Of a DNA stretch of 64,000 nt, positions 23,408-31,847 are shown piece by piece. Location: the NCBI RefSeq assembly GCF_026337845.1, contig NZ_JAOVZF010000146.1, positions 57,015 to 121,014 of the forward strand, in the 5' to 3' direction. The notes below the pieces were generated by a model. That model worked only from the letters and a program-made list of their open reading frames with translations. It was not told the origin of the DNA and did no database searches. Each line of letters starts with the position of its first letter. The first letter of the stretch is position 1. The position numbers and the translations under genes were made by a program. Source of the stretch: Paraliomyxa miuraensis. Lineage in GTDB: Bacteria > Myxococcota_A > Polyangia > Nannocystales > Nannocystaceae.

Positions 23408-23634
23408 GCTGCCGCCATGATAACGGCTCCCGCCCGATCGCGGGGGCTCGCGAAAGCCCTCGCGGGTAGCGCACCTGGAGGACGCATCCGCTCCGAGGAC
23501 GGGACCCTGCGCAGAGCCGCGCATGCCGAAGCCCCGCCATTTTCCACCCGCGCCCACCCGGCGCTCACACCATGGGGGACCGATGGTGCGTAGAAGCGGC
23601 GGGATCGGTACAGTCGCCACCCGCTCAGACCGTC

Positions 23635-25980
23635 ATGCGCAACCGCAAGCTCGCCCGCCTCGGCCCCCTCACCTTGCTCCTGGCTCTGGCCCCGACCCTC
23701 GCGTCCACGGGCTGTGCCAGCGGGCGCCGAGCATTCCCCGCCACCTCCACCAACCTCGAGCTCGAGCGCGTCGTGCTCTATCGCAACGGCGTCGGCTACT
23801 TCGAGCGCCACGGCGAGGTCGACGACTCGACCCTGCGCATTCGCGTGCGCCGCGATCAGATCAACGATCTGCTCAAGAGCCTGACCGTGGTCGATGCCAA
23901 CGGCCAGGCCGTGAGCGTGTCGATGCCGCTGGACCCCGAGACGTGGGCCGCGGCCGCCCTGTCGGCGTTGACCCCGGGCAGCGGCAGCCTGGCGCAGCTA
24001 CTCGACGGCCTGCGCGGTACCGACGTCACCCTGCACACGACGCTGGGCCGCGTTCGCGGTCGGGTGGTGCTGGTGGAGCGGATCATCGACGAGCCCGATC
24101 CCGACGCCGCTTCGGGCTGGCCGCGCGGCGGCGGCGGCGGTGATGGGCCCTCGCAGCGCGACTTCAAGGTCACGCTCATGAGGGGCAACGAGCTCCAGGT
24201 GGTGCGCCTGTCCAAGGTCCGCGACGTGACGCTGCACGACGGCGACCTCGCCATGCAGCTCCACCGCCGTCTCGACGCCAGCTCGGGCGAGGGCATGTTC
24301 CAGCAGGTCGAGGTGGCGATCGAGCTGGTGGGCGCCAAGAGCCACGACGTGAGCGTGAGCTACGTGGTCTCGGCCCCGATGTGGAAGCCCACCTATCGCG
24401 TGGTGCTGCCCGAGGACGGCAAGGGCCAGGCGCTGCTCCAGGGCTGGGCCGTGGTCGACAACGTGAGCGGCGAGGACTGGTCGAACGTGAGCATGTCGCT
24501 GACCTCGGGCGAGCCGATCGCGTTCCAGTACGATCTGCACACCCCGCGCACCGTGTTCCGCAGCGATCTCACCGAGTCCGGCGTGCGCAAGCGGGCCACG
24601 GTGGCGATGGGCGAGACCACCTACGGCACCTACGACGAGGCGATGGCCGAGCCCGAGCCCGAGGCGGCTGCGGCCTACGACTATGAGGCCGACGACATGG
24701 CCGGGGGCGACGGGGACTACTGGGCCGAGGCGGAGGAGGAGCGCGAGTACAAGGCCGACAAGAACGCCAAGGCCAAGCGCAAGCCGGCCGAGCCGAAGCC
24801 GAGCGGCGCCCCCAGCAGCGGCTACGGTCGGGCCAGCGCCGCCTCGGGCCCCATGCCCCCGCCGGCTGCCAATGCACCGAGCCCCGTCGACCTCGAGGCC
24901 CTGCGGCGCAGCACGCTGGCCGACGCCCGCGCCAAGCAGGTCAGCGGCATGACCCGCTACGACCTCGAGCAGCGCGTGACCGTGCCCAACGGCAGCGCCA
25001 CCATGGTGGCGATCCTCAACCGCCAGGTGGAGGCCGAGCAGACCTTCCTCTACCGGCCCGGGGGCGCGGGCATCGGCTACGACGCCAATCCCTACCGGGT
25101 GGTGCGGTTCAAGAACAGCACGCCGTTCGTGCTCGAGCCCGGGCCCATCAGCATCTACACCGGGGGCAGCTTCGTGGGCGAGGGCCTCTCGGAGGCCGTG
25201 AGCACGGGCACCAGCGCCACGATTCCGTTCGCGGTGGAGCCGGGCATCATGGTCAGCTCGTCCGCGCAGTACTCGGGCGACGAGATGCACCTCCTGCGGA
25301 TCTCGCGAGGCGTGCTCGAGGTGGAGAGCTTCTCGCGCACGACCACCACCTGGTCGGTGAAGGGCAAGACCGACAAGGACGGCTACAACGTGCTGGTGCG
25401 CCACGGGAAGGCCGGCTGGAACTACGAGCTGATCGATCCGCCCAAGGGCACCGAGGTGCTGCCCGACGGGTACTTGATCCCCGTGGACGTGCCCAAGGGC
25501 AAGACCGAGGGCAGCACGGTGGTGGTGGAGCAGACGCCCTCGACCACCACGATCAGCATCTGGGACGGTCGCGCGCTGGGCCTGATGGAGAAGCTGGTGC
25601 TGTCGGCCGAATTGCCGGCCGACATGCGCAGCAAGATCCAGCCCGTGGTCGACCTTCGGCGGGAGATCGGCCGCATCGACACGGAGATCGACGGACTCAA
25701 GGCGCAGCAGATCGAGCTCGACCAGCGGGCCAACGAGACCCGGCAGAACCTCGAGGCGATCAAGAAGGACCCCAAGGCCGATGCGCTGCGCAAGAAGCTC
25801 AGCGACCGCCTGGAGGACTTCACGTCCGAGGGCGATCGCATCGGTCGCAAAGTGGTGGAGCTGCAGAGCCAGCGGCTCGAGAAGAAGATCGCCCTCGAGG
25901 ACCTGCTCGAGAACCTCGACATCAGCGCGCCTCCGCGGAGCCCCTCGCGAGACAAGAGCGGACCCAGCAAGGGCAAGTAG
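23635..25980 (+). CDS. DUF4140/DUF4139-family lipoprotein (mucoidy-inhibitor-A-like)
   Basis: Start at MRNRKLARLGPLTLLLALAPTLASTGC (lipobox). The architecture matches DUF4139-containing proteins. C-terminal coiled-coil and Lys-rich tail. Confidence 0.7.
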   Translation: MRNRKLARLGPLTLLLALAPTLASTGCASGRRAFPATSTNLELERVVLYRNGVGYFERHGEVDDSTLRIRVRRDQINDLLKSLTVVDANGQAVSVSMPLDPETWAAAALSALTPGSGSLAQLLDGLRGTDVTLHTTLGRVRGRVVLVERIIDEPDPDAASGWPRGGGGGDGPSQRDFKVTLMRGNELQVVRLSKVRDVTLHDGDLAMQLHRRLDASSGEGMFQQVEVAIELVGAKSHDVSVSYVVSAPMWKPTYRVVLPEDGKGQALLQGWAVVDNVSGEDWSNVSMSLTSGEPIAFQYDLHTPRTVFRSDLTESGVRKRATVAMGETTYGTYDEAMAEPEPEAAAAYDYEADDMAGGDGDYWAEAEEEREYKADKNAKAKRKPAEPKPSGAPSSGYGRASAASGPMPPPAANAPSPVDLEALRRSTLADARAKQVSGMTRYDLEQRVTVPNGSATMVAILNRQVEAEQTFLYRPGGAGIGYDANPYRVVRFKNSTPFVLEPGPISIYTGGSFVGEGLSEAVSTGTSATIPFAVEPGIMVSSSAQYSGDEMHLLRISRGVLEVESFSRTTTTWSVKGKTDKDGYNVLVRHGKAGWNYELIDPPKGTEVLPDGYLIPVDVPKGKTEGSTVVVEQTPSTTTISIWDGRALGLMEKLVLSAELPADMRSKIQPVVDLRREIGRIDTEIDGLKAQQIELDQRANETRQNLEAIKKDPKADALRKKLSDRLEDFTSEGDRIGRKVVELQSQRLEKKIALEDLLENLDISAPPRSPSRDKSGPSKGK

Positions 25981-26103: not shown

Positions 26104-26664
26104 ATGTCTGTCGCTGCGGACTCCCGGCCCCGTTCCTCGTCCCGCCGTGCCGTGCTCGCGCTCCTCGTGGGGGGCCTGTGGGCCGTCGTTGCGTGTGCAC
26201 CCAAGGTCAATGCCCAGCGCACGCCCGACTACGACCTCGAGGCCGCCAAGGCCTACGCGTGGGTCACCGAAGATCTCGTGCTCATCGAGCTCGGCGAGGA
26301 TCAGCCCAACGTGCGCACCAAGGACAACGAGCGCTTGATCCGGGAGGCGGTGAATCGCGAGCTGGCCGCGCGCGGGTTCCAGCTGGTTCCCAAGGAGCAG
26401 GCCCAGGTGCTGGTGGCGTTCTCGGTGGGCGTGCGGGTGCGCTACCGGGTGGAGGGCGTCGATCCCAGCTCGATCACCGCGACCGGCCCCGGGGAGCCAC
26501 AGACCAAGGGCACGCTCAACATCTACCTCATCGATCGCGCCACCGAGGCGGAGGTCTGGCATGGCTGGACCTCCAAGTGGCTGCACAAGGGCGACGACCC
26601 GGCAGCGGTGATCGACGAGGCGGTCCGCAAGATCATGGCTGCCTACCCGAACGACGCCCCGTAG
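26104..26664 (+). CDS. DUF4136-like lipoprotein (hypothetical)
   Basis: Signal peptide with lipobox (VVAC). Size and pattern are consistent with the DUF4136 family. Confidence 0.5.
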   Translation: MSVAADSRPRSSSRRAVLALLVGGLWAVVACAPKVNAQRTPDYDLEAAKAYAWVTEDLVLIELGEDQPNVRTKDNERLIREAVNRELAARGFQLVPKEQAQVLVAFSVGVRVRYRVEGVDPSSITATGPGEPQTKGTLNIYLIDRATEAEVWHGWTSKWLHKGDDPAAVIDEAVRKIMAAYPNDAP

Positions 26665-26740: not shown

Positions 26741-27247
26741 TCAGCCCGAGGCCGTGAGCTCGCGCTTCATCCACCGCACGAGCCCGCCGTCGTAGGTCCG
26801 CCACGAGCGATCGGGCGCATGGAACCGGACGGTGAGGACCTTGCGAGAGTTCGACTCCTTGGAGATCGGCGCGCCGATGAGCATGCCGAGCACCAGCCCC
26901 GCCGCCCAGCCGTCGCCCTTCTTGGCCACCGCGGTGCGCAGCGCCGCCGAGGGCACCGCCCCGTGGGGCGCCTCGTCTTGCAGCACCGGGCGCTTCTTGG
27001 GCGGAGCATCGAGCTTCTGCAGGCGGGCCACGCCGTCCTCGCTCACCTCGAGCATGAAGTCCTGGTTCATCTCGCGGAACGAGAAGTGCTGCCCGGCGTG
27101 ATCGAGCGGCGTGAGCTCGAGGGGCAGCTCGCCGATGCGGAGCTGTGCCACCTCGGCGAGGTCGTCGGCGAACACCACGAGCTCGTGGTAGCGCTTGCCA
27201 CGGCTCAGCAGGCCGGAGGCGAGATCGGGGAGCTTGAGCTGCGACAT
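26741..27247 (-). CDS. Hypothetical protein (168 aa) immediately downstream of the RelA/SpoT-domain gene
   Basis: 3-nt gap from the upstream gene, with high GC3. Candidate partner (antitoxin or regulator) of the toxSAS-like protein. Confidence 0.45.
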   Translation of the reverse strand: MSQLKLPDLASGLLSRGKRYHELVVFADDLAEVAQLRIGELPLELTPLDHAGQHFSFREMNQDFMLEVSEDGVARLQKLDAPPKKRPVLQDEAPHGAVPSAALRTAVAKKGDGWAAGLVLGMLIGAPISKESNSRKVLTVRFHAPDRSWRTYDGGLVRWMKRELTASG

Positions 27248-27250
27248 CGA

Positions 27251-28357
27251 CTACTTCTTCCAGCCCAGGATGGCGTTCTTCATGTCGTTGGTGGGACCCC
27301 GCCAGCTCTTGGCGAGATCCTGGAACTCCGGCCCGAAGGTCGGCATGAGGGCCAGGGTGTAGCAGAGCACGTCGTCGTCGCCGCCGGTCTCGTGAAGACC
27401 CAGCTCGCCCGCGACCTCGACCCCACGCTCGAGCATCTCGGCCGTGGTGCCCAGGCCCGCCAGCGCGCCGGAGGTCAGGGGCTCGATCACCGAGTCCATC
27501 AGCCGGAACAGCCGCATGAAGTCACCCGTGAGGGTGTGCCCCACCGAGTGCTCGAGCGCGTGCCGCAGATCCTCGGGGCTCTCGAGCGGGTGGTTGGCAT
27601 CGAGCAGTCGGCGACGGCGGGCGTCGAGCAGCCGCTCCACGGCGCGGTCGGTGAGCCGCGACAGGTGCAGCAGGTCGTCGATGCCCTCGTGGACCTCGCG
27701 CGGGATGTCCTCGGCGTCGGGCCGGTAGGCGATGTCGGACTCGAGCTCGTTGAAGATGTGCGACGAGATCGACGCGACCTGGACCTCGACGATCGAGCCT
27801 CGCAGCGACGGCCGGTCGAACGACTCGTCGAGGTCGACGAGCGCACGGCTGGCCCGTGCGCGATCGGCCTTGTGCTCGATGGGGTTGGGTACGTCGGCCA
27901 GCGGGAACCGCCGCAGGATCAGCTCGAACGCCGCCTGCTCGTCGACCGGGTGGTAGACGATCACACGCGCTCGCGCGAGATCGGGTACCAAGCGGTTGAG
28001 CTCGGTGGTCAGCCGTGTGTACGTGAGGGTCGGGCTCGAGGGCTCGTCGGCGGATCGCTGCTCGGCGAGGGTGCGTCGCACCTCGTCGGGATGCTTGGCA
28101 CGCGACAGCACCAAGGCCTTGATGCCTGCTGCGCGCAGCTCGCGGCGCAAGCGGTGCTCGAGCACTGCTCCTGCCTCTTCGTAGCGGGCCATCGAGTCGC
28201 GATAGAGACCGACGACCACCTCGATCTCACCCGGGGTAATCAAGCGTGGTGCTGTGGCGCCTTCCACGGGGCGAAGCATCGCATAGGTGGGGGCCGAAAG
28301 ACGAATATCGACCGTCGAAATCGTCGCCCCCGCGGCCGGCGGCCTCGAGCCGGGCAC
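27251..28357 (-). CDS. RelA/SpoT-domain (nucleotidyltransferase, alarmone-synthetase-like) protein
   Basis: LVLSRAKHPDEVRRTL matches the R.K...S..EK motif, DLARARVIV matches DL.G.R.I., and VEVQVASISSHIFNELESDIAYR matches the EIQIRT..QH.WAE.EHD..YK synthetase motif. An extra domain of about 170 aa follows. Confidence 0.65.
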   Translation of the reverse strand: MPGSRPPAAGATISTVDIRLSAPTYAMLRPVEGATAPRLITPGEIEVVVGLYRDSMARYEEAGAVLEHRLRRELRAAGIKALVLSRAKHPDEVRRTLAEQRSADEPSSPTLTYTRLTTELNRLVPDLARARVIVYHPVDEQAAFELILRRFPLADVPNPIEHKADRARASRALVDLDESFDRPSLRGSIVEVQVASISSHIFNELESDIAYRPDAEDIPREVHEGIDDLLHLSRLTDRAVERLLDARRRRLLDANHPLESPEDLRHALEHSVGHTLTGDFMRLFRLMDSVIEPLTSGALAGLGTTAEMLERGVEVAGELGLHETGGDDDVLCYTLALMPTFGPEFQDLAKSWRGPTNDMKNAILGWKK

Positions 28358-28468
28358 CCGGACGGATGTACAGGTCAGACATCGCCGTACGCCGAAGGGC
28401 GAGACCCGCCGTGCAGGTCTCGCCCTCTCGTGCCCTCGGTGGGGCGACCGGCCCTCGGCGACTCGGTG

Positions 28469-29788
28469 CTACCCGATGGGATTGCCCACGTTGCTGAGGG
28501 CGAAGCCGGTCATGTCGCTGTAGGTGTAGGGCAGGTTGAAGCCGGTCACGGTGTCGATCTGCCCGGTGACCGGGTTCACGCGGTAGGCCTCGTTGTTGTA
28601 GATGGCCGGGCCCCACACGTTGCCCTGGAAGTCGATGCTGATGCCGTGCACGTAGCTCGGTAGATCGATCGTCTGGACCACGGCCATGGTGTTGATGTCG
28701 ACCCCGACCATCGGGTCGTTGGCCAGCCACAGGGTGCCCATGCCGTCTTCCATGCAGCCACCGCTGCCGCCGGCGTAGGCCGTTTGCCAGGTCTCGGTGA
28801 TGGGATCGAAGCGGCCGACGTTGCTGCTGCAGGTCCACACCTGACCGAGCGAGTCCACCGTCATGCCGTAGCCGCTGGTGGCCATGGGCCAGGTGCTCAC
28901 CGAGAGATCGGACAGACGCACCCGCACCAGGTAGCCCTGGCTCAGCTGACTGCCCCAGAAGTTGCCGTCGGAGTCCACCGCGCCGCCGTAGATCCCGTAG
29001 AAGTTCGGGTTGACGCCGGGAATGGGCACGGTGGCCTCGACCACGCCGGTCTCGCCGTCCATCAGCACCACGTCGATGCTGCCGTTGGCGCCCGAGGTCC
29101 AGACCTTGGTGTCCTCGTAGCGGCACGTGCCCGTGTTGAACGTGCCCTGGGTCCACTGCACGGGCCGCTGCGAGGCGTAGGCGAACGGGGTGTGCCAGGC
29201 GATGCAGCCGTCGGGCCAGGCCTTGACGTCGCCGGCCCCCGTGGAGGTGTTGGCCGGGTTGTCGCAGCGCTCGGGGATCGCATAGATCTTGGTGACGCCG
29301 CCCGAGCGGTTGGCCACCGCCACGTCGCCGTTGAGGTTGACCGAGGTTCGCGACGGGTTGCCGTTGGAGTCGGGACGCACGACGTAGCGGCCCTCCTCGA
29401 TCAGCGTCTGGGTGTCGACCTTGGAGATCGAGCCCGAGTTGCTGTTGGCGATCCAGATGTACGAGAAGTCGGGGGCTCCGCCGCCTCCGCCTCCGCCTCC
29501 ACCTCCGCAGCCGACGTTGGCGTCGGGCTGGGTGCCGAGGTCGAACTTGACGTCGCCGTCTCCGCTGCTGTCGACCCCCGAGTTGTTGCCCGTGCCGTTG
29601 GTCGTGCCGCTGTTGGAATCCTCGTCCTGACCCGTGGCGCTGTCGGTGTTGCTGGCGGCCGTGATCGTGGTGGGGATTCCTCCGTCACCCTCTCCATCGC
29701 CGCGACCATCACCGTCGCCTCCGCAGGCCAGCGCGAGCGCAGGCACGACTGCCACACAAAGACGCCCCATCGAGCTATGCATCCCCAT
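28469..29788 (-). CDS. Secreted beta-propeller lipoprotein (YVTN/NHL-like repeats) with a poly-Gly linker
   Basis: Start at MGMHSSMGRLCVAVVPALALAC (lipobox). Asp/Gly-rich linker with a G11 run, then repeated beta-strand motifs. Confidence 0.55.
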   Translation of the reverse strand: MGMHSSMGRLCVAVVPALALACGGDGDGRGDGEGDGGIPTTITAASNTDSATGQDEDSNSGTTNGTGNNSGVDSSGDGDVKFDLGTQPDANVGCGGGGGGGGGGAPDFSYIWIANSNSGSISKVDTQTLIEEGRYVVRPDSNGNPSRTSVNLNGDVAVANRSGGVTKIYAIPERCDNPANTSTGAGDVKAWPDGCIAWHTPFAYASQRPVQWTQGTFNTGTCRYEDTKVWTSGANGSIDVVLMDGETGVVEATVPIPGVNPNFYGIYGGAVDSDGNFWGSQLSQGYLVRVRLSDLSVSTWPMATSGYGMTVDSLGQVWTCSSNVGRFDPITETWQTAYAGGSGGCMEDGMGTLWLANDPMVGVDINTMAVVQTIDLPSYVHGISIDFQGNVWGPAIYNNEAYRVNPVTGQIDTVTGFNLPYTYSDMTGFALSNVGNPIG

Positions 29789-29972
29789 CGCGGGACCATC
29801 GTAGGCCCTTCCTGGCACGGCATGCAAACCGATCTTTGGCGTGACATGCGGTTTGTGCAGATCGCACACCGTGAGCTTCACGCCCATCGTGACGACGGCG
29901 AGACTCGACCTCGAAGCGGGACGAGTTCGTGCGCGGTCACGCCTTGGGGGCCATGGACCCCGTGGGATGCGC

Positions 29973-31349
29973 TCAATCGCGCCGACGCCAAAGACCCAGC
30001 GTCAAGAGCACGAGCAATGCCGTTCCCGGCCCCGTGCCGGTGCTCGAATCACCGCGTGTGCCGTCCGTGGCCCGGCAGGCACATCCTTCGTCACCCGAGT
30101 CGTCGAGCTCGGGACCCGTGGTGGCCGCGCCCGTGCCGGCTCCCGTGCCCCCGGGGAGATCGTCCCCCGTGCCCTCTCCCGCGGTGGGATCGCCCCCGGT
30201 GCTGTCGTCCGCTCCCGTCTCGTCGGAGCCCTCCATGGGGCCGTTGACGATCACGAACGTGACCTCGGCCGAGGCCGGATTGCCGCCCTCGTCGACGATG
30301 TCGACCCGGATGGTGTGCGGGCCGTTGCCGAGCCCGTGGCCCATTGGGGCATCGCCACCATTGACCGGGAAGGTGTGGGTGGCGTTGATGAGCGAGACGT
30401 CGGCCGCCTCGGCGTCGTCGAAGTACACCGTGGTCGCCAGCACGGCGGGACGGCGGTCGTCGTCGAGCGTGACCGTGAGCTCGAAGTCGGTCTCGTAGTC
30501 GAGCTCCTGGCCGTCGAGGGGCGAGTCGATCGTCACCAGGGGCGCCACCTGGTCGGGAATCGGGGGCCCGAACAGCAGCAGCATCTCCTGGTAGGAGTTC
30601 TGCTGGTTGGCGTTGCAGAACATGGTGTGGACCGAGTTGCAGGCCGCGTTGGTGGGGTTCAGGGCGACGTCGGCCACCACCGTGCTGCAGGTGTCCTGGT
30701 ACTTGGGATCACTGGCTCCCCCGGTGGAGGGGAACAGGTTGTCGGAGGGGTCGTCGACGTGCTCGAGGCCCCAGGTGTGGGCGGCCTCCTGGTGGATGAC
30801 GGTGGCCTGGATGTTGGCGTTGTCGTTGACGAGGAACGAGAAGCTCGTGATGTTGGGGTTGGTGTTGCTGCAGTCGATGCCCGGTGCCACGCCCCCCACG
30901 CCCGGTGGGCCTCCGCCGTTGGGGACGCCGGCAACCACCATTGCATAGGGATTGCCCGCGGGCGGTCGTTCGCCCACCACGATCACCCCGAAGTCCTCCA
31001 CGTCCTCGCGGGTGGCCTGGATGATCGCCGCGCGCGTGGCGGGGCTGCCGGGGTGCTCGAGGAACTGCGTGTTGGGGAAGATCGTGGTGCAGTCCTGCAG
31101 CGAGTTGTTGCCGCAGCCGCCGTTCATGAACGGCCCCTCGAAGTTCACGTACAGCACGGTCGGGGTGTTGAACCCCGCCTGGACGTCGGGCTCGTGGCCC
31201 AGGCCCATGTGCATCGGGGGACGGGCCGGGTCGGTGATCGGCATCACCGGAGGGGGATCGAGCGGCTGTGGCTCCGGCGCCGCGGGAACGACCACACCCG
31301 AGCCCGCAATCCACGCCGTCGCGGCCAACCAAGAGATAACCAAAGCCAT
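29973..31349 (-). CDS. Secreted zinc metalloprotease with a MYXO-CTERM sorting domain
   Basis: HQEAAHTWGLEH is an HExxHxxGxxH zincin motif. The C-terminal GCACRA...ALLVLLTLGLWRRRD tail is the MYXO-CTERM signature. Confidence 0.8.
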   Translation of the reverse strand: MALVISWLAATAWIAGSGVVVPAAPEPQPLDPPPVMPITDPARPPMHMGLGHEPDVQAGFNTPTVLYVNFEGPFMNGGCGNNSLQDCTTIFPNTQFLEHPGSPATRAAIIQATREDVEDFGVIVVGERPPAGNPYAMVVAGVPNGGGPPGVGGVAPGIDCSNTNPNITSFSFLVNDNANIQATVIHQEAAHTWGLEHVDDPSDNLFPSTGGASDPKYQDTCSTVVADVALNPTNAACNSVHTMFCNANQQNSYQEMLLLFGPPIPDQVAPLVTIDSPLDGQELDYETDFELTVTLDDDRRPAVLATTVYFDDAEAADVSLINATHTFPVNGGDAPMGHGLGNGPHTIRVDIVDEGGNPASAEVTFVIVNGPMEGSDETGADDSTGGDPTAGEGTGDDLPGGTGAGTGAATTGPELDDSGDEGCACRATDGTRGDSSTGTGPGTALLVLLTLGLWRRRD

Positions 31350-31487: not shown

Positions 31488-31847
31488 TCAGGACTTGTCG
31501 GCCTCGTCGGCGGGCTCGTCCGCGGGCGCGTCGGCCTTCGCATCGCCCTCGCCGGCCTTGACCGCGGCGCTGCCGTCGTCCTTGGCCTCCTTGCCGCAGG
31601 CACCCTCGCCACATGCGGCCTCCTTGGCGGCCGCCTTGTCGGCGCCGCACTGGCCCTCGCCGCAGGCGTGCTCACCGGCCTTCGCGTCGGCCTTGGCATC
31701 GGCCTTCACGTCGGTCTTGGCATCGGCCTTCTTCTCGTCCTTCTTGACCTCGGCCGCATCCTTCTTGGCATCGTCCTTGTCGCAGGCGTTGAGCACGAGG
31801 CCGCTGCCGAGCAGGGCAAGGGCGGTCGAGATGGTCTTGATGTCCAT
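31488..31847 (-). CDS. Small Lys/Ala/Asp-rich lipoprotein with two CGEG.CG motifs
   Basis: Signal peptide with lipobox (LVLNAC). Low-complexity KADAKAD repeats, plus ACGEGQCGA and ACGEGACG motifs that could bind metal. Confidence 0.45.
   Translation of the reverse strand: MDIKTISTALALLGSGLVLNACDKDDAKKDAAEVKKDEKKADAKTDVKADAKADAKAGEHACGEGQCGADKAAAKEAACGEGACGKEAKDDGSAAVKAGEGDAKADAPADEPADEADKS

Follow-up and report, generated by a model that had tools for sequence, protein, structure and literature searches.

Within a 64,000-nucleotide stretch of the Paraliomyxa miuraensis genome (contig NZ_JAOVZF010000146.1, positions 57,015 to 121,014, ~70% GC; this whole stretch is called the window), we analyzed two adjacent genes, A and B, of which A encodes a relative of the small alarmone synthetases (SASs) from the superfamily of RelA/SpoT homologs (RSHs) and B encodes its partner. 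On balance, we favor the view that this pair is a domesticated, non-enzymatic derivative of a two-gene module resembling the toxic SAS (toxSAS) systems. Judged from its sequence, protein A of the window is probably catalytically dead.

An exact-sequence look-up identified A and B as adjacent annotated genes of P. miuraensis. Protein A corresponds to WP_266215919.1, which is annotated as “nucleotidyltransferase family protein”, and protein B to WP_266215918.1, which is annotated as a hypothetical protein. The two genes and the domains of protein A are located as follows:

27251..28267, reverse strand: gene A, RSH/SAS-like protein, 338 aa as annotated, start codon GTG at 28267
27602..28267, reverse strand: synthetase-fold (SYNTH) domain of protein A, covering residues 1-222 in the 338-aa form
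27254..27601, reverse strand: all-alpha C-terminal domain of A, residues 223-338 of the 338-aa form, ~115 aa
27248..27253, reverse strand: A-B junction, the TAG stop codon of A, 3 nt, then the ATG of B
26741..27247, reverse strand: gene B, partner of A, 168 aa

The maximal open reading frame (ORF) of A covers 27251..28357 on the reverse strand and encodes 368 aa from the first GTG (28357), and an alternative ATG start lies at 28279. Residue numbers of A follow the 368-aa form unless the 338-aa form is stated.

The placement of window A in the RSH superfamily rests on transitive homology and fold, given that PF04607 RelA_SpoT did not match it even at E<=1. Neither window protein gave a meaningful match in Pfam, NCBIfam or PADLOC; the only library match, to EccE, was sub-threshold and was rejected. 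A search of 5.8 billion proteins returned 78 relatives of A. All of those at 34-50% identity (E 1e-36 to 3e-89) carry PF04607, and the nine closest (73-90% identity) are without it. When the A-family profile was compared with PDB sequences, only SASs of the RelQ/RelP type were matched (E 4e-11 to 1e-7), and a DHFR match obtained in a single-sequence PDB search was attributed to chance. In the fold comparison, the model of A scored 17.2 with Bacillus subtilis RelQ and 16.5 with RelP, followed by 13.6 with CapRel (171 residues aligned), 10.8 with Tas1 and 7.6 with FaRel2; non-RSH nucleotidyltransferases reached at most 8.1, and Foldseek agreed. Protein A is thus predicted to adopt the SYNTH, nucleotidyltransferase-like fold, with a long conserved N-terminal helix containing RLRRELR, and its model shows this domain and the helical C-terminal domain only. 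HD hydrolase, TGS and ACT domains gave no Pfam matches in A, which leaves the architecture of an SAS.

The C-terminal domain bears the conserved motifs LTGDF, DDV and SWRGP. Its profile found 94 matches among 1.84 billion representatives, almost all of them myxobacterial, and in the matched full-length proteins the domain always occupies the same position behind SYNTH. The same profile found nothing significant among PDB sequences, and by these sequence comparisons the domain is specific to the family.

The original prediction, made from the DNA letters and translations, had described a 368-aa RelA/SpoT-domain protein without hydrolase, TGS or ACT domains, with an extra C-terminal domain of about 170 aa and a 168-aa ORF three nucleotides downstream. 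The downstream ORF and the missing domains were borne out. The domain call stands by SAS fold and transitive homology, although the window protein itself has no Pfam RelA_SpoT match; the extra domain exists but is shorter (~115 aa); and 368 aa is correct for the maximal ORF, whereas the annotated protein starts at GTG 28267 and orthologs begin near ATG 28279 or near that GTG. A structural check had also been proposed for another nucleotidyltransferase family, such as a GlnE/GlnD-like one, and such a fold was excluded because both the fold comparison and Foldseek favor RelQ/RelP.

Evidence for the degeneration of A comes from its active site. We compared window A with a divergent set of 65 homologs from outside its close clade. 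K96, G129, R131, Y167, H171, Q193, H207, Y211 and K212 are invariant in 65/65 of them, and these nine positions are also intact in all locus sequences outside the clade, down to 28% identity. Within the clade of the window copy (P0002-P0010, L006, L007, L033/L034/L039, L036 and L037; hereafter the degenerate clade) we found K96 replaced by T or D, G129 by R, R131 by T, R or K, Y167 by A, Q, H or L, H171 by R, and H207 by A, S, N or T, with Q, K or S at position 193, R, K, Q, S, D or A at position 212, and, in addition, G166 replaced by R. The basic helix that binds the triphosphate has been lost in the clade, with K96, R98, R99 and K100 changed to T/D, E/V/A, D/E/Y and Q, respectively. The corresponding motifs in window A are as follows:

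28061..28102, reverse strand: donor-site motif RAKHPDEVRRTLAE, R86 and K88 kept, K96 replaced by T and R99 by E
27965..27982, reverse strand: DLARAR, Mg-binding D126 kept, invariant Gly of DxxGxR replaced by Arg
27845..27865, reverse strand: degenerate G-loop DRARASR in place of S-G-Y-R-A-T-H, with Tyr to Ala, His to Arg and Gly to Arg
27722..27787, reverse strand: EVQVASISSHIFNELESDIAYR, catalytic Glu and Gln kept, His of the EH motif replaced by S207 and Lys of the YK motif by R212

The synthetase motifs named in the original prediction fared accordingly. R.K...S is literally absent, since the donor site reads RAKHPDE with E92 at the Ser position. DL.R.RVIV and EVQV...H...E do occur, as DLARARVIV and EVQV..H..E, but they are degenerate forms of DLAGCR and EVQV..H..ELEHDI.YK.

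In the toxSAS FaRel2, the triphosphate of ATP is bound by R64, K66, S70, K74 and R77 and Mg2+ by D90, and the base of the acceptor stacks against Tyr128 of the G-loop; the variants Y128A, Y128F and D90G are all inactive (PMC11782079). The spacing R-x-K-x3-S-x3-K-x2-R of the A family matches that of FaRel2 exactly. Mapped by motif spacing, R64/K66/S70/K74/R77/D90/Y128 of FaRel2 correspond to R86/K88/E92/T96/E99/D126/A167 of window A, which has lost two ligands of the triphosphate and naturally carries the equivalent of the Tyr-to-Ala change that has been used experimentally to inactivate a toxSAS. The G-loop Tyr and the GY..H and EH..YK motifs are missing from window A, which has A167, R171, S207 and R212 at these places. 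The net charge of A is about -18 in the degenerate clade and about -4 in intact homologs. Intact homologs have 54 columns with at least 95% conservation, and every clade member keeps 35 of these, comprising the RLRRELR helix, RAKHP, D126, E191, HxFNEL..D and the motifs of the C-terminal domain; almost all of the 19 columns that were lost or loosened belong to the catalytic motifs.

Phylogenetically, the degenerate clade is monophyletic and falls inside the diversity of catalytically intact members, and the degenerate state is therefore derived. Every clade member, over a range of 58-90% amino-acid identity, has both ORFs intact. Within the clade, the ratio of nonsynonymous to synonymous substitution rates (dN/dS) is 0.15-0.27 for A (0.25 for SYNTH and 0.29 for the C-terminal domain) and 0.33-0.41 for B, at dS values of 0.5-0.9. 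Both genes are under purifying selection and are not pseudogenes. The neighborhood of the pair is syntenic between the window and four loci of the clade (L006, L007, L033 and L034), in the order 343-aa ORF, HvfA-like peptide, secreted proteins of 458 and 472 aa, A, B, DUF4136 and DUF4139; this conserved synteny indicates vertical inheritance at one chromosomal site.

Based on these data, we propose the following course of events. The ancestral module, of a kind found mainly in Myxococcota, would have paired a catalytically competent RelA/SpoT-type pyrophosphokinase, bearing the family-specific helical C-terminal domain, with a glycine-zipper protein of about 170 aa whose translation is coupled to that of the enzyme. 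By its architecture and context, it may have served as a toxSAS-like toxin-antitoxin or abortive-infection pair. In the lineage of the window (Paraliomyxa and related genomes of the Nannocystaceae type), the acceptor site and the triphosphate-binding helix were then lost and A became highly acidic; window A is most likely unable to pyrophosphorylate nucleotides or tRNA. A and B may now form a complex as a non-catalytic protein pair, for example a scaffold, sensor or regulator, a role that we infer from the purifying selection on both genes despite the loss of the active site.

The association between A and B was assessed in about 20 distinct genome or assembly loci, in which both genes were called by hidden Markov models (HMMs). 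Every genome or metagenome locus with a full-length A has a B homolog directly downstream on the same strand. These loci come from Nannocystaceae, Enhygromyxa, Haliangium, Polyangiaceae and Kofleriaceae, and from metagenome-assembled genomes (MAGs) of Bradymonadia and Planctomycetota. In the reverse direction, we collected 21 metagenomic loci seeded with B; sequence upstream of B is available for 18 of them, and 17 of these have A directly upstream. In relatives, the two genes mostly overlap by 4 nt or are separated by a few nt, so that A and its small neighbor gene make up a conserved, often overlapping bicistronic operon. The proposed check for co-occurrence in other genomes was thus answered by strict co-conservation, usually with overlapping stop and start codons. 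Decayed copies also occur in the family: A is frameshifted or truncated in L018, L024 and L027, and L025 holds an A fragment without B. They also include a read-through in a Kofleriaceae MAG (L023:1608-2825, forward strand), where a single ORF carries the SYNTH part of A (HMM positions 8-201) followed by a complete B; the catalytic residues are intact, the C-terminal domain of A is deleted and the frame continues into B. This joined ORF may represent a genuine fusion, a deletion or an artefact of the assembly.

Intact homologs of A are found at varied sites. Type I restriction-modification (R-M) genes adjoin them in L001, L004 and L030/31, and other neighbors include PLD/helicase genes (L028), an RHS toxin (L029) and an extracellular contractile injection system (L002), with type I methyltransferase/HsdR, BrxC/D and DUF3375 genes (BREX/Wadjet-type) near intact homologs in further loci. 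On a 2.3-Mb contig (L005:3945-4988, forward strand), an intact A-B pair has an HTH-WYL-WCX regulator directly upstream (13-nt gap) and stands beside an integrase gene and an excisionase-like HTH_17 gene, an arrangement typically seen in regulated defence cassettes carried by integrative elements. Given the co-conserved partner and the R-M, integrase and BREX/Wadjet-type neighbors of intact relatives, the family as a whole resembles toxSAS and defence modules. A literature search retrieved no paper on an SAS with a glycine-zipper partner or on a stand-alone pseudo-SAS, and the A-B pair belongs to a small, mostly myxobacterial and apparently undescribed family. The 207-aa protein P0076 (ENA), from a short contig of 845 nt, is annotated with PF07228 (SpoIIE phosphatase) and shares 88% identity with 23% of A; its gene call may be chimeric or overlapping.

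Upstream of A, a very stable hairpin was found:

28396..28426, reverse strand: GC-rich hairpin in the gap that separates the upstream 472-aa gene from A, 14-bp stem

Its folding energy is -39.2 kcal/mol (z -5.7 against shuffles) and it has no T-tract. The hairpin may be a terminator, a transcription-unit boundary or a regulatory stem. Its position between A and the upstream gene suggests that A and B may form a transcription unit of their own. A scan of the A-B locus, this hairpin included, called no sigma-70 promoter and no T-tract terminator.

Some observations weigh against a purely non-enzymatic pair derived from a conflict module. Many neighbors of intact homologs are housekeeping genes (Pfam and PADLOC, 67 neighboring ORFs), and the defence-island association of the intact relatives is anecdotal and mixed, hence suggestive at best. 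In A itself, D126, E191, R86/K88 and the HxFNEL..D helix are retained, as is Q193 in the window copy, and these residues may allow residual ATP binding or an altered activity. Moreover, every clade member shares the new arginines R129, R166 and R171, a pattern that may point to a new ligand and not just to a loss.

Protein B has an alpha/beta fold, in which an N-terminal alpha/beta part is followed by two Gly/Ala-rich segments and then by a beta part where W149, Y152 and G154 are invariant; the central segment (~residues 92-130) derives from a glycine zipper. Window B has no Pfam match, the glycine-zipper models PF13488, PF05433 and PF13441 included. Among 102 members of the B family, 14 match Gly-zipper_Omp, 6 the 2TM glycine-zipper model and 5 the third model, and one member (P0101) is named “Glycine zipper domain-containing protein” in UniRef. 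In the window clade, the glycine fraction of the first zipper segment has dropped from 0.21 to 0.05, and charged residues and prolines have been gained. Since this segment and the active site of A degenerated in the same clade, functional elements of A and B changed together. These features of B raise a doubtful, if conceivable, alternative. In the ancestral or intact module, A would make a signal and B, instead of being an antitoxin, would be a membrane-active glycine-zipper effector triggered by the product of A, following an abortive-infection logic like that of CBASS or Pycsar, possibly with a residue of it in the window. Such a logic would fit the zipper matches, the UniRef name and the joint degeneration of the two proteins. 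Against it, AlphaFold2 predicts the second zipper segment as a buried beta-strand (predicted local distance difference test about 88) and not as a transmembrane helix, the Kyte-Doolittle values of the two segments (1.2 and 1.7) are marginal for transmembrane segments, and B has no signal peptide. As this alternative concerns the ancestral logic, it is compatible with a domesticated pair in the window.

A related observation comes from the metagenome contig Ga0335070_10000098 (L050:2977-3765, forward strand), which encodes a 262-aa fusion protein: a B-like domain (HMM E 3e-28) is joined to a Tad2-like domain at the C-terminus, for which PF11195 scores 32 bits (cutoff 25). This is an isolated case, and no other B was found to lack an upstream A. 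Tad2 is a phage sponge for the signalling nucleotides of Thoeris. The fusion may reflect a B-like inhibitor module that was reused in anti-defence, or a nucleotide-related role of B; it therefore hints at the effector logic and equally fits B as an inhibitor domain. PHROG annotation of its neighborhood was uninformative, and no B-Tad2 relatives were found in the phage genomes searched.

It is unlikely, in our judgement, that A is a neo-functionalised enzyme, that is, still a nucleotidyl- or pyrophosphotransferase, with a remodelled acceptor pocket that Arg129, Arg166 and Arg171 would line and that would accept another substrate, probably an anionic one and possibly B itself. The invariance of D126, E191, R86, K88 and H200-D208 within the clade, the fixation of the three arginines in 9/9 members and a SYNTH dN/dS that indicates constraint as strong as in the C-terminal domain all argue for such an enzyme. 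However, positions 167, 207, 212 and 193 vary within the clade, which fits relaxed constraint, the ATP-triphosphate helix has lost K96, R98, R99 and K100, and the net charge is -18.

The original prediction had likened the pair to an active toxSAS toxin with B as its antitoxin, or to a fused CapRel-type module, acting by tRNA pyrophosphorylation or (pp)pApp synthesis. The resemblance holds for the family, with its co-conserved partner and the defence and mobile contexts of intact relatives, but not for the window copy, for which we consider an active toxin improbable. The SAS fold, the conserved and tightly coupled bicistron, an architecture that predicts toxicity (Jimmy et al. 2020, PMC7229694), and the R-M or mobile-element genes beside intact relatives would speak for it. 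Against this, the equivalents of Y128, K74 and R77 are Ala, Thr and Glu, other motif residues are lost, window A is acidic, unlike SASs that bind tRNA or nucleotides, and the locus is fixed and syntenic. Relatives of A were not found in viral contigs, and the plasmids searched gave only partial SYNTH matches. A CapRel-type module is further contradicted by the all-helical C-terminal domain, which has no pZFD, and B matches none of the known toxSAS antitoxin classes (pZFD, Tis1-like, SAH and Panacea/DUF4065).

Finally, a dying toxin-antitoxin locus without current function, as the lost catalytic residues and the decayed or read-through copies elsewhere in the family (L018, L024, L025, L027 and L023) might suggest, is very improbable given the intact ORFs throughout the clade, the dN/dS of 0.15-0.41, the conserved synteny and the 35/54 conserved columns kept.

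The genes that surround the pair in the window are as follows:

28469-29887, reverse strand: 472-aa secreted protein with a poly-glycine run, no Pfam family
29973-31349, reverse strand: 458-aa secreted protein with the metzincin-type zinc motif HEAAHTWGLEH
31488-31847, reverse strand: 119-aa Lys/Ala/Asp-rich secreted peptide with CGEGxCG repeats
26104-26664, forward strand: DUF4136 lipoprotein, convergent with B
23572-25980, forward strand: DUF4139 protein, 802 aa, convergent with B

The 472-aa gene lies directly upstream of the pair in the window, L006, L033 and L034, and no tblastn match to it was found in L007; its ortholog in L033/L034 has a faint SGL (beta-propeller) match. In the 458-aa protein, TIGR03901 recognises a MYXO-CTERM sorting signal (21.1 bits, cutoff 20), which fits a myxobacterial origin. 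The 119-aa peptide matches NF050137, the HvfA-family domain of oxazolone/thioamide metallophores that are ribosomally synthesized and post-translationally modified peptides (24.3 bits against a cutoff of 19.5), and is conserved in the syntenic loci L006, L007 and L033. The DUF4139 and DUF4136 genes adjoin the A-B pair in the loci of the degenerate clade as well.

Taken together, the favored reading of a domesticated pair can be extended to a broader and more speculative one, to which we give rather little weight, in which the A-B family is an unrecognised alarmone-synthetase conflict module with an obligate glycine-zipper partner and the Paraliomyxa lineage carries an exapted pseudo-synthetase. 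If both parts were true, B would be a new antitoxin class or a nucleotide-triggered membrane effector, and window A, using the kept ATP-site residues and the three new arginines, would act together with B, either as a receptor for nucleotides or alarmones or as a decoy or immunity factor that protects from active modules arriving from outside. It would then be the first documented stand-alone pseudo-SAS maintained by selection. What the pair brings to the toxSAS and alarmone field is an SAS family that appears to be undescribed, whose C-terminal domain is unique and whose obligate partner is of a new type. It also offers a natural experiment, in which one module is present both as a mobile form that looks active and as a domesticated form with a degenerate catalytic site; a comparison of these forms could reveal whether B is an antitoxin or an effector, and how toxic enzymes that modify nucleotides come to be tamed and reused. 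For annotation, the lesson is that fold or operon structure alone is insufficient to call RelA/SpoT-like genes toxins or (p)ppGpp synthetases.

Among known systems, the housekeeping enzymes RelQ/SAS1 and RelP/SAS2 (PDB 5dec, 6ewz, 6fgk, 2be3 and 3l9d) were compared as the closest. Unlike these, window A is without the G-loop Tyr/His, the Gly of DxxGxR, the His/Lys of EH..YK and the basic helix, and it has an extra helical domain of ~115 aa and an obligate downstream partner; even an intact A homolog scored far below the cutoff of the NCBIfam YjbM model. Intact A members match PADLOC PDC-S33 weakly over SYNTH (E 1e-5 to 3e-10), with only about 130 of the 349 profile positions matching, and window A and B gave no match to it. 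In 2011, Delta-proteobacterial SASs were placed in bdRel and capRel (Atkinson et al., PMC3153485).

Like the toxSAS modules FaRel2/ATfaRel2, FaRel, PhRel, PhRel2 and CapRel, the A family has its SAS gene in a conserved, often overlapping two-gene operon, and several intact members stand in defence or mobile contexts. It differs in its partner, which is not pZFD, Tis1-like, SAH or Panacea, and window A appears to be without the residues needed for toxicity; at E<=1, the A-family profile matched none of the FaRel2, CapRel and Tas1 sequences. In the fused CapRel(SJ46) (PDB 7ztb), the 171 of 344 residues that align with A comprise SYNTH only. The C-terminal pseudo-Zn-finger of CapRel, with a YXXY motif gating the ATP site, has no counterpart in the all-helical, family-unique domain of A, and unlike the fused CapRel, the A family always has a separate partner gene.

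An RSH catalytic domain that loses its activity and is kept for a structural or regulatory role has a precedent in the long RSHs. The inactive hydrolase domain of RelA is written RelA[hS] (Atkinson et al. 2011, PMC3153485). Unlike in the long RSHs, the degenerate domain of A is the synthetase of a stand-alone SAS, and no active domain would be left in the protein.

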